From: Staphylococcus phage SAC
Direction: 5' to 3' (one strand)
DNA: 64,000 nucleotides
Sequence record: OR234014.1
Shown here in pieces: positions 1,917-62,236 of the stretch; the first letter of the stretch is position 1, and the number at the start of each line of letters is the position of its first letter. A model generated the notes under the pieces. It made no database searches. It saw only the letters and a list, made by a program, of their open reading frames with translations, and was not told the origin of the DNA. The position numbers and the translations under genes are program-made.

Positions 1917-1990
1917 GGTTCCTTAGGTAGCCCCATAGCCCTGTCAGACCCACCCACTTTAGTGGCATTTTACCCCTGCCCCCGTATAAT
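1917..1990. other. GC-rich island (about 60% GC) in AT-rich DNA; possible core of a small RNA or protein-binding site
   Basis: 'ggttccttaggtagccccatagccctgtcagacccacccactttagtggcattttacccctgcccccg'. Contains the palindrome ccactttagtgg and the direct repeat tagcccca/tagccc. Confidence 0.3.
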
Positions 1991-2031
1991 ATATTTATAT
2001 TAACCTATTGTATACAATCCTAATAAATAAT

Positions 2032-2066
2032 AAAAAAAAAGAAAGGGAGTTTATTCCCTTTCAATT
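2032..2066. terminator. bidirectional rho-independent terminator
   Basis: A9 run, stem GAAAGGGA / TCCCTTTC with loop gtttatt, then a T-rich tail. U-tracts are present for transcripts of both strands. It overlaps the stop of the 2071..2415 gene. Confidence 0.7.
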
Positions 2067-2070
2067 TGTT

Positions 2071-2415
2071 TTACATCATTTCTATAGCTTCTGATTTAAT
2101 TTGTTCATAGTCTTTAATGTGTTTATTAAACTCTTCAACACGCATATGTTCCAATATATAATCTGCTAACTCAAACACTTTATTATCAACTAGTCTTATT
2201 GTTGTATCGTCTGTAAAGTCTAGGTTAGACGGTATATATTCTAATGGTGTTATGTCTTTATTCTCTTTTAATTGGTTTACAATATGAATGTATTTGCATA
2301 GTAAATCGTGTTCAACAACATCTACCTCTATTGTTTCATAGATAGCTGTTAATAATAAGTCAAATTCAATTCCTTCAAGTTCTGCTGTTTGTTCCATTTG
2401 GTTAAGTAATTTCAT
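2071..2415 (-). CDS. hypothetical early protein (paralogue of 2758..3108)
   Basis: 114 aa. Shares the pattern L..AI.E...V.E.D.L.KY.H...QL...PSN.D...HM..E.F with 2758..3108. Own promoter upstream. Confidence 0.6.
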   Translation of the reverse strand: MKLLNQMEQTAELEGIEFDLLLTAIYETIEVDVVEHDLLCKYIHIVNQLKENKDITPLEYIPSNLDFTDDTTIRLVDNKVFELADYILEHMRVEEFNKHIKDYEQIKSEAIEMM

Positions 2416-2458
2416 AGTTTATCAATCCCTTTTCTTTTATTTGTATTTCCTTAATTAC

Positions 2459-2486
2459 ATTATATCAAATATACAGTTAATTGCAA
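2459..2486 (-). promoter_or_regulatory. promoter TTGCAA-16-TATAAT
   Basis: Minus-strand TTGCAA (2481-2486) and TATAAT (2459-2464), upstream of the 2415 start. Confidence 0.5.
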
Positions 2487-2519
2487 TAGTTTTAGTTAAT
2501 TATTTTGGGAAGTTTTACA

Positions 2520-2780
2520 CTAATGATTATTCAGTAATTCTTTTATTACGTCTGGTGCTAGTGTTGTTATGTCATAGTCTTGTCTTAACTCATCTAAACT
2601 ATTGTACTGTTTAATCGTTCCGCTGTCTTTGTCACTGCCTTTAATTGTTTGTTTGCTTACTGTTTCGTTAATAGCTTCATCAATATCAGTGAAGCTATTA
2701 ACGTTGTCCATTATATCTATAAGTTCTTTATCAGATAAGTTCATGTGTAATGTCTCCTTAGAATAGCATTTGTTCTGCAT
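2520..2780 (-). CDS. hypothetical early protein
   Basis: 86-aa ORF co-oriented in the early gene array. Confidence 0.5.
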   Translation of the reverse strand: MQNKCYSKETLHMNLSDKELIDIMDNVNSFTDIDEAINETVSKQTIKGSDKDSGTIKQYNSLDELRQDYDITTLAPDVIKELLNNH

Positions 2781-3108
2781 TAAATTCTAGTGTTTCAATA
2801 TCCATAATCATTTGTTCAAATTGTTCTTTGTTCATGTGGTTTAAGATAACGTTAGTAAAGTGTTCTGCTTTGTCTTGTGCTAATATAGCTCCCTCGTAAG
2901 TGCTATAATCAATGTTAGATGGTTTACGTTCTGCTTGTGTTAATGCTTCCTTGTTTAATAACTGTTGTTCTAAGTGGTTGTATTTATCTAATGCATCATA
3001 TTCAACAAGCTCTGTCATAACCGCTTCCTCAATTGCTAAAACTAATAATCTTTCAAGTTTAGTGTTTCCGTTTGCCATTTCTTTTACTGTGTTTTTCATT
3101 ATAATCAA
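2758..3108 (-). CDS. hypothetical early protein (paralogue of 2071..2415)
   Basis: 116 aa. Conserved early promoter immediately upstream. Confidence 0.6.
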   Translation of the reverse strand: MIIMKNTVKEMANGNTKLERLLVLAIEEAVMTELVEYDALDKYNHLEQQLLNKEALTQAERKPSNIDYSTYEGAILAQDKAEHFTNVILNHMNKEQFEQMIMDIETLEFNAEQMLF

Positions 3109-3149
3109 TTCCTTTTCTGTTTGTTTTTTATTTGTTGTGTTCCTTACAT

Positions 3150-3184
3150 CTATTATATTACACTATCTTAGGTGTAGTGTCAAC
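3150..3184 (-). promoter_or_regulatory. early promoter unit (TTGACA-17-TGTAATATAAT plus upstream A/T tract)
   Basis: Minus-strand 'aaaaagtgTTGACActacacctaagatagTGTAATATAATag'. Near-identical copies at 3608, 4544, 5010 and 5399. Confidence 0.7.
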
Positions 3185-3190
3185 ACTTTT

Positions 3191-3292
3191 TTAAAACTTT
3201 TTTAAGTTTTTTTTAGTGTTCTCTATAGTTACAATAGCATCCGTCTTTTGTGTTGAACGGTATTTCTTACCTTTGTATTTAAACTTAATCAT
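3191..3292 (-). CDS. small ORF (33 aa), truncated member of the 'MIK(F/V)KYKGKKYRSTQ' family
   Basis: MIKFKYKGKKYRSTQKTDAIVTIENTKKNLKKF. RBS AAGGGG. The 48-aa paralogue is at 4157..4303. The ORF runs into the downstream promoter's A/T tract. Confidence 0.3.
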   Translation of the reverse strand: MIKFKYKGKKYRSTQKTDAIVTIENTKKNLKKF

Positions 3293-3307
3293 GTTAATAA
3301 TCCCCTT

Positions 3308-3583
3308 TTATTTTGTTTGTACATTGCAATATAGTTTATATTCCAAGTAATCTTCTTTTTTGATGTATTCATTGAAATCCCCTATAACATTTGTTAGGTT
3401 TATCCATGAGTTTGTTGCCTTACTAAAACCTCTTAGTGTTATTAATCCAGTAGGCAATTTGAATTGTTCTCTTTTTAATCCTAATTCTTTTCCTATGCTG
3501 TCTTTGATGTATTTAACATCTTTTTTAATTTCTGTTATTGTTGTTTTTGGTTTAGTTTCTATTTTAATATTCATGTGTATCAA
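3308..3583 (-). CDS. hypothetical early protein
   Basis: 91-aa ORF with the conserved early promoter upstream. Confidence 0.55.
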   Translation of the reverse strand: MIHMNIKIETKPKTTITEIKKDVKYIKDSIGKELGLKREQFKLPTGLITLRGFSKATNSWINLTNVIGDFNEYIKKEDYLEYKLYCNVQTK

Positions 3584-3607
3584 TCCTTTTCTGTTTGTTT
3601 ACTACAT

Positions 3608-3641
3608 CTATTATATTACACTATCTTAATGATAGTGTCAA
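3608..3641 (-). promoter_or_regulatory. early promoter unit
   Basis: Minus-strand 'gtgTTGACActatcattaagatagTGTAATATAATagatgtagtaaacaaacagaaaagg'. Confidence 0.7.
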
Positions 3642-3700
3642 CACTTTTTTAAAACTTTTTTAAGTTTTTTTATTTGTTTGCTGTTCTTTGTTGTGTTCCT

Positions 3701-3991
3701 TTATAGTCTTCCTGCATTAATAAATAACTCTAACTGTTTGTTTAACTCATCCATAATAAAGCTATCAAGTTCATGAGCAGTAATATTATATTTCTTGTTT
3801 CCTGATGTCATTGAAACTACATTGTACACGTTATCGAATTTGTTAAAGTAAATACCATATTGTAACAAACCCCAATCATTAACATAAATATCAGTAACAT
3901 CTAAGTTATTATGTTTGCTTGAAGCTTCGTTCTGTGTTCTAATAACTGTATAATCTTGGTTTAATTCTTCTAAAGTTTTATAGTTTTTCAT
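3701..3991 (-). CDS. hypothetical early protein
   Basis: 96-aa ORF. RBS AGAGGGA. Confidence 0.55.
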   Translation of the reverse strand: MKNYKTLEELNQDYTVIRTQNEASSKHNNLDVTDIYVNDWGLLQYGIYFNKFDNVYNVVSMTSGNKKYNITAHELDSFIMDELNKQLELFINAGRL

Positions 3992-4043
3992 AAGTAATCA
4001 ATCCCTCTTCTTTTTTTGTTTGTTGTGTTCCTTACTACAATTA

Positions 4044-4075
4044 ATATATTACAGTATAAGCTCGTATTTGTAAAG
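4044..4075 (-). promoter_or_regulatory. early promoter variant (TTTACA-17-TGTAATATATT)
   Basis: Minus-strand 'TTTACAaatacgagcttatactgTAATATAtt'. Confidence 0.5.
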
Positions 4076-4142
4076 TATTATATCAAAGAAATAAGGGAAG
4101 TTTTACACTAATGTGAAGCGGTTATATAGGCATAAAAAAATA

Positions 4143-4165
4143 AGGGTGGTTAGCCCTTATCTAAT
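4143..4165 (-). terminator. rho-independent terminator
   Basis: Stem ataaggg / cccttat with loop tggttag. Followed by a T7 run on the minus strand (plus-strand A-run at 4134-4140). Confidence 0.6.
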
Positions 4166-4303
4166 AAATATATTAATATTCTCTTGTAATCTAATAAACC
4201 AGTCTATCAATGTGATTACTGCTGTACCACCTAGAATAGTTACAATAGCATCTGTATTTTGTGTTGAGCGGTATTTCTTGCCTTTATATTTAACTTTAAT
4301 CAT
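4157..4303 (-). CDS. small protein (48 aa), 'MIKVKYKGKKYRSTQ' family, C-terminal hydrophobic segment
   Basis: MIKVKYKGKKYRSTQNTDAIVTILGGTAVITLIDWFIRLQENINIFIR. RBS AAGGGA. Its stop lies inside the terminator stem. Confidence 0.45.
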   Translation of the reverse strand: MIKVKYKGKKYRSTQNTDAIVTILGGTAVITLIDWFIRLQENINIFIR

Positions 4304-4355
4304 TGTGTATCAATCCCTTATTTTTATTTTTTAAGCCTATGTAATAGGCTTTTGG

Positions 4356-4502
4356 CTATGACCAATTTATATCTTGTCTTTCTTTCTCTAGTTTTACCAG
4401 TTGTCTACGTAAAAAACGTGCTAACTCTCTGCTATTCCTACCATATATTAAGGCTTGCTGTACCTCGTCAATTTCTCTTAAAACTATTCTTATATCTCTC
4501 AT
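4356..4502 (-). CDS. small basic helical protein (48 aa)
   Basis: MRDIRIVLREIDEVQQALIYGRNSRELARFLRRQLVKLEKERQDINWS. Sits directly downstream of an early promoter. Confidence 0.4.
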   Translation of the reverse strand: MRDIRIVLREIDEVQQALIYGRNSRELARFLRRQLVKLEKERQDINWS

Positions 4503-4543
4503 TTTAATACCCGCCTTTTTTGATTTGTTTTTGTATTACATCT

Positions 4544-4575
4544 ATTATATTACAGTATCTTAAATGTAATGTCAA
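4544..4575 (-). promoter_or_regulatory. early promoter unit
   Basis: Minus-strand 'TTGACAttacatttaagatactgTAATATAATagatgtaatac'. Confidence 0.7.
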
Positions 4576-4583
4576 ACATTATT

Positions 4584-4817
4584 TTAACCTTTTTTAACAA
4601 GTTTTGTTTTTCCATTTTCAAGTGTTAGTTTCACGCATTTGTCTGTTGTTGTAATTTCTTTTACATTGCTATTGTAAAGAGCATGACAAGCTTTATTAAT
4701 ATGATAGTATAAATCATCACATTCTTCCATATCTGACCACAGTCTATAATCATTTGATATAGAACCTTGTGCTTTAATTCTGTTATAAGTTCCTTTAATG
4801 TAATATAAATATTTCAT
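4584..4817 (-). CDS. hypothetical early protein
   Basis: 77 aa. RBS GGAGG lies in the 3' end of the upstream small ORF. Confidence 0.55.
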   Translation of the reverse strand: MKYLYYIKGTYNRIKAQGSISNDYRLWSDMEECDDLYYHINKACHALYNSNVKEITTTDKCVKLTLENGKTKLVKKG

Positions 4818-4818
4818 A

Positions 4819-4974
4819 TTATTTAACCTCCGTATAGTGTATTACAAGGCTATAACCTTGCTTTGTTGGTTCGTGGTATGCTCGTGTGATAATTACGTTG
4901 TTTTCTCTCTCGAATTGTTCCATTTCATAGCCGTAGTTCTTATATGGTTTACTGTTAGTAATTAGTGTTTTCAT
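4819..4974 (-). CDS. small ORF (51 aa)
   Basis: MKTLITNSKPYKNYGYEMEQFERENNVIITRAYHEPTKQGYSLVIHYTEVK. Stop TAA is 1 nt before the next ATG. Confidence 0.4.
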   Translation of the reverse strand: MKTLITNSKPYKNYGYEMEQFERENNVIITRAYHEPTKQGYSLVIHYTEVK

Positions 4975-5009
4975 AATTAATCAATTCCTTTTCTGTTTGT
5001 TTACTACAT

Positions 5010-5044
5010 CTATTATATTACACTATCTTAATGATAGTGTCAAC
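5010..5044 (-). promoter_or_regulatory. early promoter unit
   Basis: Near-identical to the 3608-3641 copy. Confidence 0.7.
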
Positions 5045-5046
5045 TA

Positions 5047-5361
5047 TTATTTTAACTTTTTTTCTTTAATAATTTCTGCATTCTCATTCACTAGGTATAA
5101 CGTATTATCTAGCTCTATAAATAAGTGTTTGTTCACTACCTTAACATTAATGTTAATTGGTAATCTATTTGAATGTGATACGCTAAAGACTTTCGTTTCT
5201 TTAAATAGTTCTAATGTTTCATAACTACCATCAATGTAAGCTAAATATTTAACTTGATAATGTGTTGAGTATTTTAAGTCATTTCTATAGTAGTTATTGC
5301 TTTTGTAACCGTCCATGTCTAAAAGTTCTATTAGTATATCTCCAATTTGATTTACGTTCAT
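5047..5361 (-). CDS. hypothetical early protein
   Basis: 104-aa ORF. Confidence 0.55.
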   Translation of the reverse strand: MNVNQIGDILIELLDMDGYKSNNYYRNDLKYSTHYQVKYLAYIDGSYETLELFKETKVFSVSHSNRLPININVKVVNKHLFIELDNTLYLVNENAEIIKEKKLK

Positions 5362-5398
5362 ATCTTATCAATTCCTTTCGGTTTGTTTACTACGCTTA

Positions 5399-5429
5399 TT
5401 ATATTACAGTATCTTGTATTTAATGTCAA
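5399..5429 (-). promoter_or_regulatory. early promoter unit
   Basis: Minus-strand 'TTGACAttaaatacaagatactgTAATATAATaagcgtagtaaacaaaccgaaagg'. Confidence 0.65.
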
Positions 5430-5685
5430 TAGGTTATACGAAAGTTTTTCAAAAGAAATGATTTCTTACTATTATATAGAAGAAACTAGAAATTACAGCT
5501 TAAATTAATTATTATAATCAATCGATTTAATTGTATACAATGCAGTGTAAAAATAACCATTTAATTTGATTAAAGGTATTGCATTTATATGTCAGTCTAT
5601 TAAAAGAAATAATGATATAGAAACAATAAAAAAGTTAGAAAAAGAATTACAAGAATTATATAAAAGAATTATATAAAAGAGTTAT

Positions 5686-5715
5686 AGATTAGGCTATTAA
5701 CCTAATCTTTTTTTA
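5686..5715 (+). terminator. plus-strand rho-independent terminator
   Basis: Perfect 8-bp stem agattagg / cctaatct, loop ctattaa, followed by T7 on the plus strand only. Confidence 0.6.
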
Positions 5716-5943
5716 TGTTGTTTGAAGCGGTTAATATAAAGGGAAAACAGCGCCTGCTACTTAGGAAAATCATAGATTTATACTTATGATGTTTATAACA
5801 GTAAGAGAGCATTAAGCTTATAGGTCTATATTCAACGGTAATACTTTTTAGGTAGTATTTATCCTATAATATTTACTTGCTTATATAAGGTAGTTAAATA
5901 GGCAATACAAGCATATGAAAAAGCTAGAGTAAAGCAACCCTAG

Positions 5944-6351
5944 CTACTTAATTTGATTCAAAATATCCTTAACAGCTTCTAATGTTAAATCTGATAACTT
6001 AATATTCTTATCACTATTAGTATCAATAATTACAGTATAGTTATCTACATCATACTGTATAACTTTAAGTACTGAATAAGTAACTAACTCGTATTCTGTA
6101 TGTGTGTGATATTCTATCATTGCGTACCCTATACCTAATTCAGTTAAGATAGGTTCTAATGTTTTTCTTCTCTCCATAAAATCTTTAATAGTATATTGCA
6201 TACCGTCTTTACTTAAAAATGCAGGCTCGTCATTGTAAATATAAAATAAATTCTCAATAAGTTCTAGTAAATCTTCTTCTGTTCCCTCACAAAGACTTAC
6301 TGTATAAAGTAATTCATCGTATAATTTATCCTTTGCTTCTTGAATATTCAT
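5944..6351 (-). CDS. hypothetical protein
   Basis: 135-aa ORF. RBS AGGAGG. Confidence 0.55.
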   Translation of the reverse strand: MNIQEAKDKLYDELLYTVSLCEGTEEDLLELIENLFYIYNDEPAFLSKDGMQYTIKDFMERRKTLEPILTELGIGYAMIEYHTHTEYELVTYSVLKVIQYDVDNYTVIIDTNSDKNIKLSDLTLEAVKDILNQIK

Positions 6352-6964
6352 TGATATTCCTCCTTTATCCTATCCTAAGTGTATCATAAGTTTTAGGTAA
6401 TGTAAAGTATTTTATTTTAACCAGTATCTAACTTATCCGCTTCATTAATCCAACCTTAATTTAATCCCTGATACTTATCTTTTATCATACATACCTGTAA
6501 TAATTACTTGTCTGCAGAAAAGGTCTAAAGCTTTCATATTCAATATATTGTAGTAACAAAACATACTTAGCAACTTGTAACATAACTGTAATATTATTAT
6601 AATGCTGTTGTAACTAAATTCTCATCTAATTCTCATAAACATATGTTATAATCTAAACAACAATTAATTAGTTGTTAGTATTTTAATACGAATAACTTAT
6701 TACAGGCGTTACCTTGTTGTAGCGTAGCGTAAAACAACAAGGTATACGCTGTTTTGTTCTTATCTTTTTAAAAAGATAAGTCGTACGGTTAGTACGAAAT
6801 ACAAATATATAAATAAGTAATAACAAATATTTATACATAACTAACAGATAAATATACAAATTATTAGATTAACTATGTTGAAACGGGCATACTATGCTCA
6901 AATTGATATACAATTATTAGCCAAGATTAAATACAACATAATTACTCAGAATATAAATATAATA

Positions 6965-6993
6965 TAAAAAAGAAGCGGTTTAATACCGCTTCT
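6965..6993 (-). terminator. rho-independent terminator
   Basis: Stem agaagcggt / accgcttct with loop ttaat. T-run follows on the minus strand. Confidence 0.55.
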
Positions 6994-7160
6994 ACTTCTT
7001 CAATATGATATTATAAATACTGTTTATCTTCTTTAACTAACCTTAATAAAGCATACTCATTCTCAATGACACTATAACCCTATAAGATATCTTGTAATAT
7101 TAATCTAGTCCCTACAGGTGTTAGTGTACATACTGATGTTCATTAAAGTCAGCCTCTCTA

Positions 7161-7442
7161 TTATTTACCAAATCTTTCTTTAGCAATCTTTTTCATTTGC
7201 TCTTTGCGCTCATTACTTACCGGTTTTCTTAATGTAATTAAATCCTCATCTAATACAACTTTAACCAATACTGGTGTTTCATTTTCTAATTGTTCTAATA
7301 CTTCCACCTTATCAGGGTACTTTTTCATAATATCAGTAATATAAGGTTTTCTACTTGCATAAATAATCCATTGCCCTTGATTATAATTCATACTTACTTC
7401 TTGTTCTTCAAAACTATATCCTCTACTTACAACTTTAGTCAT
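7161..7442 (-). CDS. hypothetical protein
   Basis: 93-aa ORF. RBS AAGGAGGG. Confidence 0.5.
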   Translation of the reverse strand: MTKVVSRGYSFEEQEVSMNYNQGQWIIYASRKPYITDIMKKYPDKVEVLEQLENETPVLVKVVLDEDLITLRKPVSNERKEQMKKIAKERFGK

Positions 7443-7568
7443 TCTAATACCCTCCTTTATATTTAAGACCCTTAAGCTAGGGACGTTATAGTTCTATATT
7501 AAACGATAATCATTTTCTAGTAGTATTTATCCTATAAAATAACTTAATCTTTAAGAGCCTAATAACCT

Positions 7569-7877
7569 TTATAATAAATTAGTGATTAACCTAACTGTTT
7601 CTAAGGTAATAGGGTTGCTTTTACTGTCTACATAAGACAGTTCACTATCGAAACCAGAACCACTTAAATAGATTTGATTACGTTCCACATTAAATACAAT
7701 TAATTTAGTAGGGTCTACTTTACTAAACACTACTACATATTCCTTGCCATTGGCTAAAGGAAGAATAGCTCCGCCTGTTATTTTTTGAATTTTTTTGATT
7801 ACAACAGAATCGTCTTCCATCATAGTTTCTTCTTTGTTCATACCTTCTTGTACTATTTTTCTTTTTATTGTTTTCAT
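7569..7877 (-). CDS. hypothetical protein
   Basis: 102-aa ORF. Confidence 0.5.
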   Translation of the reverse strand: MKTIKRKIVQEGMNKEETMMEDDSVVIKKIQKITGGAILPLANGKEYVVVFSKVDPTKLIVFNVERNQIYLSGSGFDSELSYVDSKSNPITLETVRLITNLL

Positions 7878-7879
7878 TG

Positions 7880-8089
7880 TTATTTCCCCTTATCCATAAA
7901 TACAGTAACTATAATGTTTTGTAAACACTTAATAATCTTATCTCTTTGAGTGTCAGATACTTCATACAAGTCTTCTGTATTATCTAAGAAGCGGTTAAAT
8001 TCATCTTGATTAGTAAAATCTACACCTTTATTAGTCTCATCTAAAAATTTCTCAATAACTCTTTCTGCTATTTTTTTATTACTACTCAT
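7880..8089 (-). CDS. hypothetical protein
   Basis: 69-aa ORF, tightly packed with its neighbours. Confidence 0.45.
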   Translation of the reverse strand: MSSNKKIAERVIEKFLDETNKGVDFTNQDEFNRFLDNTEDLYEVSDTQRDKIIKCLQNIIVTVFMDKGK

Positions 8090-8103
8090 TATCTATTCTC
8101 CTT

Positions 8104-8406
8104 TTATTTTTTAGTAACTGTATAATACTCGTCATTAGTAAGTTTACTAATATCTATATCTTCTTCAGAAAAATATAGATTTTTATCATCTTTACTTAAT
8201 TGTTTTAATACACTATCAATGTATATAGGTAATACCTTCCCATCATTAAAAACCACATCAATACTATCTTTTAAGTATATATGATTCTCATCTATGATTG
8301 TATAAATATTATAATCTTCTAATACCTTACTCCCAATTAACGCTACTTTTCCGTTACTCATATTAAGAACTCCTTTTATATAATATTTGAAGTGGTTATA
8401 CTTCAT
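8104..8406 (-). CDS. hypothetical protein
   Basis: 100-aa ORF. Confidence 0.5.
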   Translation of the reverse strand: MKYNHFKYYIKGVLNMSNGKVALIGSKVLEDYNIYTIIDENHIYLKDSIDVVFNDGKVLPIYIDSVLKQLSKDDKNLYFSEEDIDISKLTNDEYYTVTKK

Positions 8407-9133
8407 TCATAGGATATTCCAGATAATACTTAATTGTTTGTAAAGGTTTATGTACATTAGTGCCATAACCATAGGAATAAATTCCATAAGTATCAGAGTA
8501 AAATTTCTTTATATCAATTAACTCAACTTCTCTATATACTACAACATTATATGGAGATACTACAAACTCATAATCTCCTCCCATAAAAGTATTATATAGT
8601 ACTTGTTTTAACTCAAGACCACTAGTGACTATATCCTTATAGAAGAAGTTGAGATAGTTATCTACTGTATTAAGAAAGTCTTTTACACCTGTATACTCTT
8701 TATAAATATTAATCCAACCTAATTCTAATTCATAATATAGGTTACCCTCTTCATCAAAACTTAGTTTAAGTTTAACCGTATCAATATCTTTACGATGTAT
8801 ATTAAAAGATTGCTCTAAGAAACCTACATCCCAAATATGCTTAACTCCATTAAAATTCTTTAAACCTTTGATACTTAACTGAGCAATAGCTTTGGACATT
8901 AACTTTTCTTCTTTGGTATTTAACTTATGTCTTGATAAGTATTCATAACCATTAAAGTCATATACATATTGGTTATCATCTTTACCTACGCTAATTGACT
9001 TTAAATATTTTTTATTAGTTTCTACATAGTATAAAACACCACCAAGACCAAATAATCCTAAAAAACCACCAATATAATCAACAGAGTAACCTTGTTTCTT
9101 ATACTCTTTAATTTCTTTTCTCTTACTAAACAC
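8396..9133 (-). CDS. hypothetical protein
   Basis: 245-aa ORF. Confidence 0.55.
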   Translation of the reverse strand: MFSKRKEIKEYKKQGYSVDYIGGFLGLFGLGGVLYYVETNKKYLKSISVGKDDNQYVYDFNGYEYLSRHKLNTKEEKLMSKAIAQLSIKGLKNFNGVKHIWDVGFLEQSFNIHRKDIDTVKLKLSFDEEGNLYYELELGWINIYKEYTGVKDFLNTVDNYLNFFYKDIVTSGLELKQVLYNTFMGGDYEFVVSPYNVVVYREVELIDIKKFYSDTYGIYSYGYGTNVHKPLQTIKYYLEYPMNEV

Positions 9134-9152
9134 TATAGCACTCCCTTATACA

Positions 9153-9512
9153 TTATTCTACTTGCTCTTCCATAGATTGAATTGTATGTAGTACCATAGT
9201 AGCTAAATCTCTAATTATCTCAAGTTCATCACTATCTTCATATACATTAGTTAAAGTATCACAGAAAGAGCATGAACCGTAAAAATCACTAACAGTGATA
9301 TCTGGAACACCCTCTACCTTTGATTTAAATTTAGATATAATAGTACCTGAGTAACCATCACCATCATTAATAACAATAGGGTTTGTGTCATGTGTATCTT
9401 TCAACACTAACTCCCCTGCTAACTTGTGTAAGTCTTCATAGAAATAATGCTCATGTTCATCAATAAATTCCATAATATAATCTGTAGTTATACCTTTAGC
9501 TTGTTCTAACAT
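9153..9512 (-). CDS. hypothetical acidic protein
   Basis: 119-aa ORF. RBS AGGAGGA. Confidence 0.5.
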   Translation of the reverse strand: MLEQAKGITTDYIMEFIDEHEHYFYEDLHKLAGELVLKDTHDTNPIVINDGDGYSGTIISKFKSKVEGVPDITVSDFYGSCSFCDTLTNVYEDSDELEIIRDLATMVLHTIQSMEEQVE

Positions 9513-9537
9513 TATATTTTCCTCCTTATTTTTACAA

Positions 9538-9939
9538 TTATTTTAAATTATCTATCGTACTCTTAATCAAATATCCTTCTGGATTAAAAATCTCTTGAAT
9601 AGCAATAGGCAAGCCTATTAATAGCACTAAAAAAGAAATAATAGACAGAGTAACAGCAAATATAATTACTGTGCATCCTGCAGCAGAAAGCTCTTTTTCA
9701 TTCTTATAAACAAACTCAAATAATAGGGTACTATGACCTTCATTAGACTTTTTATCTGACTTATACAAAGCCACCCATAAGATAGCTGTTATAGATAATA
9801 ATATACTTATTGAACATAAATCTATAATACCTTGAGTAACTGTGTATTTAATTAAGGATTCATAACCATGTGTACCTGCTTGCTCTAACTTACCACCTAA
9901 ACTATCTAAACGTTCTAATACTTCTTTATTCATATCCAT
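9538..9939 (-). CDS. membrane protein (2 predicted TM helices)
   Basis: Two hydrophobic segments: ILLSITAILWVALY and TVIIFAVTLSIISFLVLLIGLPIAI. Confidence 0.5.
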   Translation of the reverse strand: MDMNKEVLERLDSLGGKLEQAGTHGYESLIKYTVTQGIIDLCSISILLSITAILWVALYKSDKKSNEGHSTLLFEFVYKNEKELSAAGCTVIIFAVTLSIISFLVLLIGLPIAIQEIFNPEGYLIKSTIDNLK

Positions 9940-9964
9940 ATTATATTCACTCCTTTAATCTTTA

Positions 9965-10003
9965 TATACTAAGTATAAACCTTAACACACATAAAATCAA
10001 CAC
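9965..10003 (-). promoter_or_regulatory. class-2 promoter with TATACT-N-AGTATA palindrome
   Basis: Minus-strand TGTTGA...TTATACTTAGTATA...AAAGGAG. Same architecture at 13113, 15481, 16933 and 22090. Confidence 0.45.
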
Positions 10004-10089
10004 ATTTATGTAAGAGATATAAAAAAATACCTATAGTTATAATAGCTATAGGTATAAATTTTCATATAGAAGCGGTTATATATAATACT

Positions 10090-10398
10090 CTACTTACCTA
10101 GGAACGTACGAATTTCCTTTAGACGCTCTTTTTCTTTTCTGCACTTTTCATCTAAAGATTCCTCATAGTAATCAATAAGACTATAGATACTACTGAATCC
10201 TTTAGGTAGTAATGTGTCACTGTTAATAACCTCTTTTACTACTCTACCATTTTTGATAAACTTCATGTTATTATAATGTTTATCATCATTAACTTTAATA
10301 CAGTAACCTTCACCTAAGTCATAAGTATACCAATCCCCACTACCAAAGTTACAATGACCTAATATATACTCAAATAATTCACTTACCATAATATCCAT
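10090..10398 (-). CDS. hypothetical protein
   Basis: 102-aa ORF, ATGA-coupled to the upstream gene. Confidence 0.5.
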   Translation of the reverse strand: MDIMVSELFEYILGHCNFGSGDWYTYDLGEGYCIKVNDDKHYNNMKFIKNGRVVKEVINSDTLLPKGFSSIYSLIDYYEESLDEKCRKEKERLKEIRTFLGK

Positions 10399-10745
10399 TA
10401 TTCTAACCTCCCATACTCATACATAACTTTATTTTCATATTCTGTATATAAATACCCTAGTAATATATAGATATTAGTATACAAACCTTCTAGCTCCTCT
10501 AAGTCTTTAATTGTTCCCACCTCAAGCGTATCACTCAAAGGAAATACTATATTATCCGCTTCCTCAAACCTAGCAATGATATGGTTGTCTTTATATACAA
10601 GAATATAAATAAGGCTATTACCTACTCTACACCTTACTTTATAACCCCTACCTAAGTACACCTCATAATCTGTAATATTCTCCATTATGCCAGTAACTTC
10701 TCCATACTTCCTACAAAACTTAGCTAATTTTGACATAGTAACCAA
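10398..10745 (-). CDS. hypothetical protein
   Basis: 115-aa ORF. Confidence 0.5.
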   Translation of the reverse strand: MVTMSKLAKFCRKYGEVTGIMENITDYEVYLGRGYKVRCRVGNSLIYILVYKDNHIIARFEEADNIVFPLSDTLEVGTIKDLEELEGLYTNIYILLGYLYTEYENKVMYEYGRLE

Positions 10746-10870
10746 CTCCTTTTTTACCTTTTAAACTTTTCTTCTAGGGAAAACCTATCTAATTTTACCT
10801 AAATGTCAACCATAGAATGCGGGTTCAAGCCCTATTTTTACCTTTGACTACTTTTTCCTAGAGAAAAACT

Positions 10871-11209
10871 TTAGTTATACTGTTCTACTTGTTCTCCAAA
10901 TATATTATACATATATTTTTGATAAGCACTATCTTTTAAATACTTATCATACTCATCTACTAGTATCTTATACATATTACTAACTACATCTTTCAATAAG
11001 GAAACATACACCTTACCTGTACCTTGTACTACTACTTCATACTCACTCATATCATCATATACCATAATAGCACAACCAAAATAAGTATCTTCCAGAAAGA
11101 ACCTATAAATATACTTATCATCACTTGTTCTTATACAATTTGTATACTTAAACTCACCTATACCTGATTTATTATGTAACACTCTATCTAGTATATCTAA
11201 TTCTTCCAT
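10871..11209 (-). CDS. hypothetical protein
   Basis: 112-aa ORF. Confidence 0.5.
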   Translation of the reverse strand: MEELDILDRVLHNKSGIGEFKYTNCIRTSDDKYIYRFFLEDTYFGCAIMVYDDMSEYEVVVQGTGKVYVSLLKDVVSNMYKILVDEYDKYLKDSAYQKYMYNIFGEQVEQYN

Positions 11210-11414
11210 AATAAGCCCCTTTCTATTGTGTTAATAAAACACCTACTCCATATATAAACATAATCAATATAAGTATAGTTAAAAACACTGCTAACTTAAA
11301 TCTATTACTATTACCTTCTTTACTATATACTCTATAACATATATCTATATCTATAACTAAATACATTAATGATAAACTTACTACAAAGTAACCTATACTA
11401 ATACCCTCTTTCTA

Positions 11415-11615
11415 TTACATACCTAACATATGTAGTATTATAGAAGCAAAAACTAAAACAGTTAAAACAAAAGAAACAATAAGATATATACTAAAAAACA
11501 CTTCTTTCTGCTTAATAGATTTAACTATATCAGTAATTAAAGCACTAAGCATACCAACTATAATACTAATACCTAAAATACTAACCGCAATATACATTAA
11601 AGTTGAACTTATCAT
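11415..11615 (-). CDS. small membrane protein (2 TM)
   Basis: 66 aa, almost entirely hydrophobic. Confidence 0.45.
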   Translation of the reverse strand: MISSTLMYIAVSILGISIIVGMLSALITDIVKSIKQKEVFFSIYLIVSFVLTVLVFASIILHMLGM

Positions 11616-11855
11616 CTACAACTCTCCTATATAATAAAGTACTCTACTTACTATGTAACCTAAACTCAAAACAATAGAAATAGTACCAATACAAATACTC
11701 ATAAATAATAAACCAAACACACAAGCTGATTCTAAATCACTAACACTATCATAATTATCAAGTACATGCTTATAATACTTCTTACCAAACCTTATACTTA
11801 GTACAATACCAATAGTAGCTAAAAATATAGCAACGATACTTATAAATATACTCAT
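11616..11855 (-). CDS. small membrane protein (2 TM)
   Basis: 79 aa, hydrophobic. Confidence 0.45.
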   Translation of the reverse strand: MSIFISIVAIFLATIGIVLSIRFGKKYYKHVLDNYDSVSDLESACVFGLLFMSICIGTISIVLSLGYIVSRVLYYIGEL

Positions 11856-11920
11856 AAACTAATCCCCCTTTTTATTGAAGCGGTTTTTATTTCCATTACT
11901 TACCTTACAAAAACCGCTTC

Positions 11921-12106
11921 CTAAATACCAAATAAAGCTAATATACTTGATACCAGTACAACCGTCATAACTGTAAATGATACGATATTAGTCCACTTAT
12001 CAAACCTATCATACTTAATTGACTGAACCATTTCTACTAGAATAAAGGTATACATAAACAAAACCATTACAGCTACTATTGTAAGTAACATTGTTAGTCC
12101 TATCAT
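11921..12106 (-). CDS. small membrane protein (2 TM)
   Basis: 61 aa, hydrophobic. Confidence 0.4.
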   Translation of the reverse strand: MIGLTMLLTIVAVMVLFMYTFILVEMVQSIKYDRFDKWTNIVSFTVMTVVLVSSILALFGI

Positions 12107-12108
12107 AT

Positions 12109-12303
12109 CTATCTCTCCTTCCTATCAGACATATGATGTAATACAGAGAGTATAAAAGCAAGTACAAAAGCAAGTACAAAAGGAATTAAACATGTAATAG
12201 GAATTACCTCTTCCCCTATGATTAAATTCCCTACCCACATACCTAAAATTACTCCTGCTAAACAAAATATATAACGTAAAATAAACTCCAATGCTTTACT
12301 CAA
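12109..12303 (-). CDS. small membrane protein (2 TM)
   Basis: 64 aa, hydrophobic. Adjacent to three similar genes. Confidence 0.4.
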   Translation of the reverse strand: MSKALEFILRYIFCLAGVILGMWVGNLIIGEEVIPITCLIPFVLAFVLAFILSVLHHMSDRKER

Positions 12304-12350
12304 CTTACTTCCTCCTTTATAATTATTCTCAAGTATAACTTAACAAAATA

Positions 12351-12560
12351 CTACTTTAATAACCTTTGTTTAAAGAATCTTACTACGTCTTCACCATAAC
12401 ATACAGATAAAAATACATTATCCCCTGTAACCCTAAAACCACTATCTATACATCTATTTTCGATGTAGTAGTCATTAACTTTTAATGTACTCATGTCCCC
12501 TAAAACTTCTATTTTATATCCTAACTGATTTAAATGTACATAAATATCTGATAAACTCAT
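12351..12560 (-). CDS. hypothetical protein
   Basis: 69-aa ORF. Confidence 0.4.
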   Translation of the reverse strand: MSLSDIYVHLNQLGYKIEVLGDMSTLKVNDYYIENRCIDSGFRVTGDNVFLSVCYGEDVVRFFKQRLLK

Positions 12561-12685
12561 AATACAACTCCTCGTTACTAAGTCTTTATTGAAGCGGTTA
12601 TTTAACCCCTCTATATACTAGTACTACACATAATAATACAAGTGCTGTACATATGTAAGTATACTGAATATTACTATATACCAAA

Positions 12686-13087
12686 TCACAATACGTTACC
12701 ATCTTTCCATATAGTAACTAACTCATTATCTACAACAGTACTAACAGACAATAACCATGTATTTTTACCTTCGACATAGTAGTCAATAACTTCATTAATA
12801 CTACTTCTATACCATACTGAGTTTAATACACTGTTACCTTGCTTATAAGTAACTACTATACTACTTAACTCAGTAGAAGCATCTATAACCGCTTCTACAA
12901 TAAACTTAGTGTCATTAGGTATAGTAATAGATTTATTAGGATACAATGCATTATAAAACGATATATCATCAACAGTTATAACAACAATAAACTGACTATC
13001 AGTAGAATAGTGTCGACCTTTTTTTATATCACCTTTATAATACATATACATTAATTCTATAAACGAAACTTCTCTTTTAATCTTCAT
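12686..13087 (-). CDS. hypothetical protein
   Basis: 133-aa ORF. RBS AAAGGAG. Class-2 promoter upstream. Confidence 0.5.
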   Translation of the reverse strand: MKIKREVSFIELMYMYYKGDIKKGRHYSTDSQFIVVITVDDISFYNALYPNKSITIPNDTKFIVEAVIDASTELSSIVVTYKQGNSVLNSVWYRSSINEVIDYYVEGKNTWLLSVSTVVDNELVTIWKDGNVL

Positions 13088-13112
13088 AATAAATCATCTC
13101 CTTTAACTTTAT

Positions 13113-13149
13113 ATACTTAGTATAAACCATAAGTAATATACTGTCAACA
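13113..13149 (-). promoter_or_regulatory. class-2 promoter (TTGACA-17-TATACT with palindrome)
   Basis: Minus-strand 'gTTGACAgtatattacttatggttTATACTaAGTATAtaaagttaaaggag'. Confidence 0.55.
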
Positions 13150-14119
13150 CATATGTGTAAAATAGTTAAAATTTCTTTATTGTTCGGAAATTACTAAATA
13201 TATTAAACTTTTACTCTAGGGAAAATTAAGTCAATACTACCACAGAAACAAACTATATATATATATTAAATAAGCAATGTTCAGAATTATAGTATACCAT
13301 ATACACAATATCTGATACTAAATATACCTTTATACACAGTAAATACTACTTCAGCTTAGTTTAACTACACATTAGAATAGTTTAGCATATAATCAGCATA
13401 GTTTAATACTACATAAGCATAGTTCACAGTAGTTAAAACTATATAAAAATAAATAGTTAGATGTCTAATAGTTAGATACCTAACTATTTATACACTATGA
13501 AGGTGGGAAGCAAAGAAATTCCTAGGTAACTGTTCTTACTTGCTACTTGCTACTTAGTATATAGGTATACCATGTACCTGTTTTCTTTTAATTACTTACT
13601 AGCTATTACTTAGTATCTACTTATTTATCTATCTAGAAGATGTAAAGAAATTACTAGGTAACTGTTCTTACCTAACCTAAGTGATAGTGGTAGCTACTTT
13701 CTTTTAGCTACTTTCTTTTAGTTACTTACCTATTACTTAATATCTATTACTTACTATTAGAATATTTATTAATACTTAAGTTACTTAATAATTCTTTCTT
13801 CTTATTATTCATATCTTCAAACTGTTATACAGTATTTATTTACTTATTTATTTACTTATCTATTTAGCTATTACTTATACACTACCTACTACCTACTGCT
13901 TATCTATGTGCTATCAATTATTGTTTTTTTATCTATTATTTATTTCCTTGATATATAGGTACTTATAATATCAGTTGTTTCTTTATGTGTTACTTATCTG
14001 ATTTCTTTATCTACTTATATATATTGCTTTCTTTTACCTATTACTTACTTATATAACTTCTACCTACATCAATCTCTATACCTATTTGTTTGTCTGTTTG
14101 GTTGTTTACTCTTCTACAC
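13130..14119. repeat. 1-kb non-coding CT-rich (plus strand) low-complexity region with iteron-like repeats
   Basis: The plus strand is almost G-free. Degenerate TTACTTA / CTAC units. 28-nt direct repeat at 13512-13539 and 13644-13671 (27/28 identical). Tandem 'agctactttctttta' x2 at about 13693-13722. No ORFs. Confidence 0.6.
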
Positions 14120-55256: not shown

Positions 55257-55946
55257 TTAATTTGTATTATTTAGTAATCTATCTTGTGCCATACTGAAGT
55301 ATTCTTCTGATAATTCACAACCAATAAAATTCCTATTTAACTTTTTACATGCGACACCTGTTGTTCCGCTTCCCATGAAGCAGTCTAGAACAATGTCTCC
55401 TTCATTAGTTAAGCACTCTAACAACCATTCCATAGCATATAAAGGTTTCTGTGTTGGGTGTCCTTTGCCCTGCTTTTCACTTCTAGGTGTTACACTTGTT
55501 TTAATACAAGGTCTTTCATATTTTTCATCTAAACGGTTAAAAGTCCATTTAGCTCCTTTTTTAACAAAATAAAGAGCAAATTCAGTATCAAAAATAAATC
55601 GTCTATCCCTATTACGAGGCATAGGGATAGATTTTTTCAGACGAATAACATCTTTAAATTCACAGCCTAATTCTTCCATAGTATTAATGATGAGTGTGAA
55701 TTGTCTCATGTCACAAAACACAACGATATTACCACCTTTTTTAACTTTTGGTATAGCTTTATTAATCCATAAAGTAGCTTCAAAATTTTTATCCCATTCC
55801 CCAAAATCAATACCAGCTCTACCCATAGTTGTGAACCTGTTCTCTTTTGCAATATTGTATGGTGGGTCTGTGATAATAGCATCTACACTACTATCTTCAA
55901 TTGTATCTAATAACTCTAAGCAATCCCCCTGTAATAATTTTATCAT
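55257..55946 (-). CDS. DNA methyltransferase (beta-class N6-adenine/N4-cytosine, DPPY)
   Basis: 'AIITDPPYNI' (motif IV) near the N-terminus and 'VLDCFMGSGTTGVAC' (motif I) near the C-terminus. Confidence 0.85.
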   Translation of the reverse strand: MIKLLQGDCLELLDTIEDSSVDAIITDPPYNIAKENRFTTMGRAGIDFGEWDKNFEATLWINKAIPKVKKGGNIVVFCDMRQFTLIINTMEELGCEFKDVIRLKKSIPMPRNRDRRFIFDTEFALYFVKKGAKWTFNRLDEKYERPCIKTSVTPRSEKQGKGHPTQKPLYAMEWLLECLTNEGDIVLDCFMGSGTTGVACKKLNRNFIGCELSEEYFSMAQDRLLNNTN

Positions 55947-61551: not shown

Positions 61552-61798
61552 CAATTATGTTACGATTAGGTTCGTTACTCCTAACCTTCTTGTAGTCTCC
61601 TACAAAGTTCAGACTATATCTTAACCATATCTAATGAGACTTAGGTTCTCCCTGTTTCCAATCACTTGATTGTACATAATAGTCGTTGCACCTTCCTAGT
61701 AATTTATTAAGCTTGGCTCATGATTGTCTCAAATGAGAGAGTTCCCATGAATTAAAGGAGTTACACTTATAATATTTCTACTATAAGGGGCAAAATTT
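61552..61798 (-). mobile_element. small ORF-less group I intron (about 247 nt) in the helicase gene
   Basis: Splits Walker A 'ATNAGK|TEV'. Exon 1 ends GGT (U) and the intron ends ...TTG (G). GC-richer structured sequence with the 'aagatatagtct' core about 60 nt from the 3' end. In-frame stops in the intervening sequence. Confidence 0.7.
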
Positions 61799-62236
61799 AC
61801 CTGCATTGGTAGCTTGCTTACATATACCATTATAATTGACTAAACTATTAAACACAGCTTCATACTGATAGTCACGTAATGTAATCTTACCTACGTTATT
61901 ATCTAGTAGCTGTATTTCATCATCAATATCTTCTTCAGCTAAAAAGCTTTCAGATTTTTCATCAATAATTTCGTATTGAAAGTTATGTCTTGATTGTAAC
62001 TCACCTAGTAATGTTATCATCTTAGGTAACAACCCACTAGGGAATTTGTTCTCAGCATAATCGTAGAAATCCACATAACCATCCCACACACCTCGTTTAA
62101 AAGCTAAGCTATGTTGATAGCCCTCTTTCTTAGCTCCTAACGTTTTATGAACACGCTTAAGTATGATATCTTTAATATACCCGTCACTTTCATCAAAATC
62201 TACATATGTATATATATTCTGTTGTCTTAATTGCAT
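61799..62236 (-). CDS. SF2 helicase, exon 1
   Basis: 'LRDYQYEAV' (Q-motif/Ia-like) and Walker A start 'ATNAG'. Confidence 0.75.

Follow-up and report, generated by a model that had tools for sequence, protein, structure and literature searches.

A predicted early-gene promoter array in the long terminal repeat of Staphylococcus phage SAC and its relation to cassette exchange among Silviaviruses

The 64,000-nucleotide stretch of Staphylococcus phage SAC analyzed here (sequence record OR234014.1; hereafter the window) contains an array of seven co-oriented units with eleven small open reading frames (ORFs) on the minus strand at positions 5466-2041. We are highly confident that this array represents the downstream third of the long terminal repeat (LTR) of a Staphylococcus Silviavirus, that its seven units have host-type promoters, five of them with a shared portable block, and would be expressed immediately early, and that the blocks also provide homology for recombination. 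A preliminary description of the window, made from its letters alone, had proposed an array of near-identical strong early promoters driving small genes and resembling the host-takeover regions of Twort-like phages; this interpretation is supported by homology and by the literature. The array thus corresponds to the already-described LTR early-gene region of Silviavirus, which is already annotated in the type species, and is in itself an ordinary feature. In the order of transcription, the promoters are named P1 to P7 and the genes A to K (Table 1); the seven units encode products of 104, 51+77, 48+48, 96, 88+33, 113+74, and 114 amino acids (aa), respectively.

Anatomy of the promoter family

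Searches of the window with the pattern TTGACA-N15-TGTAATATAAT, allowing at most two mismatches, revealed six matches, all of which are located on the minus strand between positions 3152 and 5429. The expectation from 100 dinucleotide shuffles was 0.17 matches on average, and none of the shuffles reached six. The proposed array is real, and each match precedes one or two small ORFs that have a strong ribosome binding site (RBS). Five copies are exact, with -35 elements starting at 5429, 5043, 4575, 3641, and 3183; the sixth, at 4074, is degenerate (TTTACA...TATATT), and a seventh unit at 2486-2459 has a promoter of a different type, TTGCAA-16-TATAAT with a preceding TG (TGATATAAT). The proposed extent of the shared block, from an A/T tract to the RBS, was likewise recovered: repeat finding yielded a five-member family of 83 nt (family D1) that spans the upstream A-tract region through the RBS, and an alignment of the seven upstream regions shows, in order, A-tracts, the -35 element, a spacer with a conserved proximal half, and the -10 box, followed by a leader rich in A and by GGA(A)TTGAT shortly before the ATG codon. 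The P2 and P5 promoters are identical over ~58 nt, from the -35 element to the RBS. Two strings that had been given as common to the units proved to be of narrower occurrence: GTGTTGACA is present in two copies only (3641 and 3183), and the leader agatgtagtaaacaaacagaaaagg is exact only in the copies at 5043 and 3641, the others being variants.

The -35 element is a perfect TTGACA in P1, P2, P3, P5, and P6, TTTACA in P4, and TTGCAA in P7, as expected for promoters of the sigma-A type. In these same five promoters the -10 box has the form TG-TAATAT-AAT. The originally described spacing of 17 nt holds for the distance between the -35 element and TAATAT, whereas TGTAATATAAT begins at 15 nt and the perfect TATAAT at 20 nt. 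The TAATAT hexamer at 17 nt matches the sigma-A -10 consensus at four of six positions, including the key A (position 2) and T (position 6). In P1-P6, no base separates the TG dinucleotide from TAATAT; only P7 (2467-2459) and the site at 4085-4077 have the canonical TGnTATAAT arrangement, and TATAAT is carried by P7 and by the upstream part of P4. Among 77 copies of the block (53 distinct sequences) collected from 15 Silviaviruses, the -35 element and the TGTAATAT box are nearly invariant and the distal half of the spacer is variable, a signature of selection on the promoter elements.

Upstream of P5 and P6, three A-tracts follow one another at distances of ~10-11 nt and end in AAAAAAGTG just before the -35 element. 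Being about one helical turn apart, these tracts look like an UP element. Both UP elements and curved DNA upstream of Bacillus phage early promoters are well known, and on these grounds the A-tracts are predicted to contact the RNA polymerase alpha subunit at its C-terminal domain. The leaders of P1, P2, P3, P5, and P6 are A-rich and ~35-45 nt long. A riboswitch or attenuator within them was considered and rejected, since five leaders folded with minimum free energies of 0 to -1.5 kcal/mol and z-scores of at least 0, i.e., they are unstructured. The RBS presumably pairs with the anti-Shine-Dalgarno sequence, both in its core and in its 3'-proximal part. The array region contains only two good terminators; one follows gene E (4138-4162) and the other follows gene K (2041-2062). 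An Rfam search of the whole window at gathering thresholds found nothing in or near the array, and a tRNA search found none.

Two further repeats were observed near promoters. The 16-nt motif TAGTGTAAAACTTCCC occurs twice on the minus strand (4095-4110 and 2506-2521), each time 10-35 nt upstream of an extended -10 promoter TTTGATATAAT, namely the upstream part of P4 and P7; it thus forms a second repeat associated with promoters, smaller than the block. Another promoter repeat is used in the upstream two-thirds of the LTR (minus strand, 13147 and ~10005), GTGTTGA(C/T)..GGTTTATACT.AGTATATAAAG.TAAAGGAG; there the coding strand is G/T-rich, whereas it is A-rich in the array.

Phage identity and placement within the terminal repeat

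A megablast search with positions 2000-6400 as a query matched 50 phage records at 90-99% identity, of which 49 bear the name Staphylococcus phage and one the name Silviavirus; those relatives that are annotated belong to Herelleviridae, Twortvirinae, Silviavirus. In the linear record of one relative, LSA2308, both 10,492-bp ends are 100% identical to each other, and the ends map to positions 1925 and 13522 of the window. The sequence TTCCT(T)AGGTA is found on the plus strand of the window only at these two boundaries (1919-1929 and 13519-13528), and an alignment read on the minus strand from 13522 starts at nucleotide 1 of the phage K and PSU6 records. Both LTR ends in the window are homologous to the LTR ends of these two phages. 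Given the mapping of the LSA2308 ends, with the boundary motif and the end homology in support, we place the array in the distal (downstream) third of the LTR, within the long direct terminal repeat and at a position equivalent to genes gp014-gp021 of phage K.

Just inside the downstream LTR end lies a 33-nt element, TATATTATACGGGGG(C/G)AGGGGTAAAATGCCACT (1961-1993, minus strand), that is invariant in Silviavirus, Kayvirus, and PSU6. When folded as RNA, this GC-rich element scored z = 0.5, which is no sign of significant structure; a terminase or boundary signal is a possible role, as is the start of a small RNA.

Annotated orthologs and early expression in related phages

The resemblance to the terminal-repeat early regions of Twort-like phages, proposed from the sequence, is borne out by the Silviavirus identity and LTR location described above, and by annotated promoters, a shared promoter family, and a shared gene. 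In the Remus genome (JX846612), sites orthologous to the array promoters are annotated as promoters "discovered using MEME with manual verification", and terminators are annotated after the last gene. In the sister genus Kayvirus, the LTR genes give the first transcripts (2 min) from host sigma-A-type promoters (PMC9241854, PMC11598898). Specifically, RNA-seq of phage K indicated that transcription begins at host sigma-70-type promoters and that the LTR genes gp014-gp018 are abundant at 2 min (PMC9241854), and the LTR transcription units form the earliest expression cluster (PMC11598898). The authors of the former study also reported that host-takeover genes known from earlier work are expressed during the middle phase (PMC9241854).

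A relaxed family pattern, TTGACA-N17-TAATATAA with at most one mismatch, was searched in the window and in positions 1-60000 of phage K. All five matches in the window are array promoters, and four of the five matches in phage K are located in its LTR, upstream of gp010, gp014 (TreN), gp015, and gp018. The gp014 gene, whose product is homologous to that of gene E, is one of the 2-min transcripts of phage K.

Gene products of the array

All ten ORFs tested match PHROG families, nine of which have no function assigned. Two genes encode homologs of named Tre proteins: the product of gene E is TreN-like (phrog_3325, E-value 8e-27), and that of gene A is TreJ-like, being annotated as TreJ in SAP_01 and 31% identical to TreJ of PSU6. 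The genes at 2071..2415 and 2758..3108, which had been singled out as paralogs, are indeed related: the products of I and K are 35% identical over 95 aa (E-value 2e-15) and both belong to phrog_8830, a family found only in records of Silviavirus-like Staphylococcus phages. The size range of 33-135 aa previously assigned to the driven ORFs needs an amendment. Each unit does carry one or two small ORFs, of 33-114 aa, but the 135-aa ORF, at 5944-6351, is located upstream of the array, and none of the blocks drives it.

Searches of the ORFs against Pfam, NCBIfam, and PDB sequences returned only DUF7335 for gene A, the rest being sub-threshold noise, and with PHROGs included as well, these databases gave no informative hits bearing on homology to SPO1 gp37-gp60. 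For gene A, an exhaustive HMMER search yielded only six relatives, and an AlphaFold2 model built on this shallow alignment (predicted local distance difference test score, pLDDT, 61.6) was too poor for use. Because nine of the ten ORF families have no assigned function, the profile searches are at noise level, and the gene A model is poor, "host takeover" is a label given to these ORFs by analogy; we regard the eleven ORFs as candidates for small host-directed effectors.

Cassette shuffling at the promoter blocks

We mapped the genes and promoter blocks of the window onto 14 related genomes and found that the order of cassettes differs among the resulting 15 Silviaviruses. If a canonical block is written as P, the degenerate P4 as P', a promoter of the P7 type as p, the truncated E copy as H, and an extra gene as X, the window has the order P-A, P-BC, P-DE, P'-F, P-GH, P-IJ, p-K. 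The G-H cassette is missing from LSA2308, MR003, Stau2, and V1SA19, gene D from StAP1 and HM01, and gene F from V1SA20 and CIFT32. In Remus, the G cassette is absent and BC leads directly to IJ. In EW15, A is followed by G and a full-length E; in KSAP11 and EW41, F stands ahead of G-E with a full-length E; and VL10 has the extra gene X between D and E. When the relatives were aligned pairwise with the window by BLAST, the promoter blocks, which make up ~25% of the array, held 39 of the 49 internal segment ends, and six of the seven blocks are used; a secondary hotspot of breakpoints is the RBS leader of gene E. Compared with LSA2308, the window has an additional G-H cassette together with an additional block copy, and the single block of LSA2308 matches both copies that flank the cassette. 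ORF H, which is cut off next to block P6, is read as a recombination scar. We propose from these comparisons that the ~100-nt promoter blocks are junctions for gain, loss, and reordering of small-gene cassettes among the 15 Silviaviruses. Such shuffling fits the LTR-biased recombination of bred Kayviruses, in which the frequency of recombination per kb is ~9 times higher within the LTR than outside it (PMC8065394). Another variable cassette region was observed at 10982-12653, a 1.7-kb LTR stretch that is absent from LSA2308 and encodes several very small hydrophobic ORFs resembling membrane peptides.

Alternative explanations and weight of the evidence

The shuffling raises the possibility that the blocks are mainly mobile regulatory cassettes, like the promoter-early stem-loop (PeSL) cassettes of T4-type phages; the blocks would then persist by carrying ORFans between genomes, and their promoter activity would be secondary. 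PeSL repeats hold the junctions of gene exchange (PMC2839356, PMC4122927), and the array shows corresponding features: the cassette order varies between close relatives and the blocks contain the junctions, direct repeats of the block flank the G-H cassette, truncation has left ORF H as a scar, and the LTR is the recombination-prone part of bred Kayviruses. However, a PeSL is defined in part by a terminator stem-loop; the block lacks one and contains only an AT-rich 7-bp hairpin upstream of P5 and P6. Moreover, the -35 and -10 elements are conserved far more than the rest of the block, which argues for selection on promoter function. We consider a mainly mobile role to be a serious possibility that stops a little short of being probable, and one that complements the explanation of the blocks as host-type early promoters.

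The conserved spacer could alternatively be an operator for a dimeric phage or host regulator that switches the whole array, so that its timing would be regulated rather than simply immediate-early. A perfect 8-bp inverted repeat, ACACTATC-ATTAA-GATAGTGT, bridges the -35 and -10 elements on the minus strand of P2 (5012-5043) and P5 (3610-3641) and is directly visible there; its 6-bp part ACACTA/TAGTGT is kept in many variants, with ~10 spacer variants of Silviaviruses retaining ACACTA...TAGTGT while the inner 9 nt vary, and CACTATC/GATAGTG is mildly enriched in the LTR. However, the P1 and P3 subclass has T..C at the paired positions, a change that is not compensatory, the inverted repeat is missing from the promoters of this family in the phage K and PSU6 LTRs, and the arms overlap sequences beside the -35 and -10 elements that are conserved anyway. 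The palindrome as an operator is thus unsupported, and we consider this explanation improbable.

That the units resemble each other only through a recent tandem duplication of one promoter-gene unit, with neither selection on the repeats nor special promoter strength, is very unlikely: the array does include paralogs (I/K and E/H) and the ~58-nt identity of P2 and P5, yet genes A, B, D, F, G, and I belong to six different PHROGs and are mutually unrelated, the blocks are much more alike than the adjoining genes, which share no similarity, the same promoter family occurs with diverged genes in the LTRs of another genus, and the conservation is centered on the -35 and -10 elements.

Several observations weigh against the interpretation of the array as an immediate-early LTR module that exchanges cassettes at its promoter blocks. 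Given the TAATAT match of four out of six at the canonical spacing, the position of TATAAT at 20 nt, and the gapless TG, the term "near-consensus" is fully true only of the -35 element. A literature search found no Silviavirus transcriptome, and for this reason early timing in this phage, together with promoter strength, is extrapolated from Kayvirus. The breakpoint counts represent non-independent events, as the phages share ancestry, and wherever a repeat is shared, the ends of BLAST segments would be expected to extend into it. Finally, the re-sequenced Remus genome (MW546076) has a shorter repeat of 7,351 bp that corresponds to ~4579-12400 of the window and starts just downstream of gene C at block P3; under these boundaries, genes I, J, and K would fall just outside the repeat. 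Since both ends of the longer version, that of LSA2308 with genes I, J, and K included, are homologous to phage K, the comparison favors this version.

Proposed mechanism of array expression

According to the proposed mechanism, the host sigma-A RNA polymerase would recognize the array promoters once the DNA enters the cell, with no phage factor required. The P1, P2, P3, P5, and P6 promoters would use the shared portable block, consisting of A-tracts, TTGACA, a 17-nt spacer, TG-TAATAT-AAT, a leader, and the extended Shine-Dalgarno sequence GGA(A)TTGAT; in P4 the block is degenerate and is immediately preceded by an extended -10 promoter, TGATATAAT, and P7 is a promoter of the same extended -10 type. 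The resulting immediate-early mRNAs would encode the eleven small proteins, namely the TreJ-like protein, the TreN-like membrane protein, the paralogous pair, and others with no assigned function. Because the only terminators are those after E and after K, transcription from successive promoters is expected to sum along P1-P3 and along P4-P7.

Later shut-off probably involves a phage anti-sigma protein of the gp67 type. Silviaviruses encode a protein 58% identical to the anti-sigma factor gp137 of phage K and gp67 of phage G1, and the gp67 protein is reported, as cited in PMC11598898, to block the use of UP elements. In addition, the blocks may serve as portable homology, recombination within which would have inserted, deleted, and reordered cassettes among close relatives.

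Chi-like sites in the terminal repeat

The 9-mer AACCGCTTC is present in 10 copies in the window, compared with ~0.14 expected, and all ten are located in the LTR. Its core is the reverse complement of GAAGCGG, the Chi-like site of S. aureus, which is often extended here to GAAGCGGTT; an unbiased ranking also gave GAAGCGG as the top LTR-enriched 7-mer family. The 11.6-kb LTR of the window contains 13 copies of GAAGCGG (expected 0.09 under an analytic first-order Markov model), and the other 52 kb contain one copy, at 55366. In phage K, the 8.5-kb LTR has 20 copies and the following 51.5 kb have none; in PSU6, all 16 copies lie within the first 9.3 kb, and the following 30.7 kb are free of the site. 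Both orientations occur (in the window, seven on the plus and six on the minus strand), and the copies are mostly intergenic; nine of the 13 LTR copies in the window are non-coding, and two pairs form terminator stems.

The S. aureus AddAB enzyme processes free ends up to Chi sites, and Chi limits the capture of CRISPR spacers. By the established rule, Chi is read from its 3' side on the strand that ends 3' at the entry point; AddAB/RexAB entering either genome end would thus meet an active GAAGCGG within 0.4-1.1 kb, both in the window and in phage K. A literature search found no report linking GAAGCGG with Twort-like LTRs. As a tentative proposal, the Twortvirinae LTR may be a Chi-armored, recombination-primed end domain. 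Its Chi-like sites would stop the degradation of injected ends by AddAB/RexAB, limit the capture of CRISPR spacers from the genome ends, and load RecA, thereby favoring LTR-LTR recombination. If this proposal is true, the Chi sites and the portable blocks together would make the early-gene array a platform for cassette exchange, a Gram-positive counterpart of the T4-type PeSL regions.

Implications

The array adds little to what has been described, beyond confirming that the immediate-early LTR module of a Twort-like phage is recognizable from its sequence alone and supplying, for this genome, a clear map of the units, the terminators, and a single recombination scar. As Silviaviruses and Kayviruses are leading therapeutic phages, the by-products of the analysis carry more practical weight. 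If the blocks drive cassette turnover, this would explain why nearly identical therapeutic isolates differ in LTR gene content and why bred phages recombine mostly in the LTR. The clustering of Chi suggests a simple, testable way in which linear genomes survive the host AddAB/RexAB and avoid CRISPR adaptation at their ends. Thus, the exchange of block cassettes and the Chi-rich LTR are the parts worth following, whereas the array itself is known.

Map of the array and neighboring features

Table 1. Features of the array and the surrounding LTR in window coordinates
Feature	Position	Strand	Details
LTR-equivalent segment containing the array	1925..13522	.	LSA2308 mapping, boundary motif, end homology
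Promoter block P1	5362..5466	-	-35 TTGACA 5429-5424, 17 nt, TAATAT ending 5401, leader, RBS GGAATTGAT
Gene A, 104 aa, TreJ-like	5047..5361	-	Pfam DUF7335, phrog_2601
Promoter block P2	4975..5080	-	promoter 5043-5015
Gene B, 51 aa	4819..4974	-	phrog_15099, no assigned function
Gene C, 77 aa, translationally coupled to B	4584..4817	-	phrog_10311, no assigned function
Promoter block P3	4503..4612	-	promoter 4575-4547
Gene D, 48 aa	4356..4502	-	phrog_17700, no assigned function
Gene E, 48 aa, TreN-like membrane protein	4157..4303	-	phrog_3325, homolog of phage K gp014
Intrinsic terminator after E, sole one within the array	4138..4162	-	
Composite promoter region P4	3992..4126	-	perfect extended -10 TGATATAAT 4085-4077 and degenerate family copy TTTACA-17-TAATAT 4074-4046
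Chi-like site in P4 region	4115-4121	+	GAAGCGG
Gene F, 96 aa	3701..3991	-	phrog_14210, no assigned function
Promoter block P5, three A-tracts upstream	3575..3678	-	promoter 3641-3613
Gene G, 88 aa	3308..3574	-	phrog_12335, no assigned function
ORF H, 33 aa, 5' fragment of a second TreN-like gene	3191..3292	-	first 23 codons, 90% nucleotide identity to E (family D6)
Promoter block P6	3100..3220	-	promoter 3183-3155
Gene I, 113 aa, paralog of K	2758..3099	-	phrog_8830
Chi-like site within gene I	3021-3027	-	GAAGCGG
Gene J, 74 aa	2520..2744	-	phrog_3549, no assigned function
Promoter P7, unlike P1-P6 type	2416..2519	-	2486-2459: TTGCAA, 16 nt, extended -10 TGATATAAT; annotated promoter in Remus
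Gene K, 114 aa, paralog of I	2071..2415	-	phrog_8830
Bidirectional intrinsic terminator closing the array	2041..2062	-	annotated in Remus
GAAGCGG in LTR, plus strand	4115, 5724, 6972, 7988, 10069, 11877, 12591	+	
GAAGCGG in LTR, minus strand	3021, 6437, 6986, 10556, 11914, 12889	-	

Two features of the window outside the array were also observed. An LTR segment of ~700 nt (6400-7160), bounded by a terminator (6971-6993) and by the promoter of the gene for 135 aa, contains no convincing ORF; this segment could encode a small non-coding RNA, because such RNAs have been reported in the terminal repeat of phage K (PMC9241854). A group I catalytic intron (61589-61808, minus strand; RF00028, 91 bits, E-value 5e-22) is the only Rfam match in the window; such introns are common in Twortvirinae genes.

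Comparison with known systems

The pre-early (first-step-transfer) region of coliphage T5 is located in an LTR. Like the array, it comprises early genes with strong host-type promoters in a long direct repeat that enters first and is present in two copies; as a difference, we know of no evidence of two-step DNA injection in Twortvirinae and of no homology between the two regions.

The Bacillus phage SPO1 reportedly has a host-takeover module in its terminal redundancy, with host shut-off demonstrated for several of its products. Both this module and the array consist of many small genes in a long terminal repeat, with a predicted strong host-sigma early promoter and a strong RBS for each unit, and both phages belong to the Herelleviridae. 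However, the array genes showed no sequence homology to SPO1 genes by Pfam, NCBIfam, or PHROG annotation, and the demonstrated shut-off concerns SPO1 products and none of the array ORFs.

The array and the PeSL regions share near-identical repeats of strong sigma-70-type early promoters among small ORFans in a hyperplastic region, and in both cases the junctions of insertions, deletions, and replacements between close relatives lie in the repeats, although for the array these events are non-independent. In contrast to PeSLs, the terminator stem-loop is not part of the array repeat, as the GC-rich terminators are found only at 4138-4162 and 2041-2062, outside the block; moreover, the host is Gram-positive and the phage family is unrelated.

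The tre region of Twortvirinae, represented by gp010-gp021 of phage K and by the Remus/Romulus promoters, differs from the array in that genes B, C, D, F, G, I, J, and K match only uncharacterized PHROG families, and in that the window has its own cassette order with an extra G cassette and a truncated TreN-like fragment. The two belong to the same subfamily and occupy the same distal LTR position beside the conserved boundary element, and they share the promoter family TTGACA-17-TAATATAA, the style of the A-rich leader, the GGATTGA RBS, and the TreN-like and TreJ-like genes.

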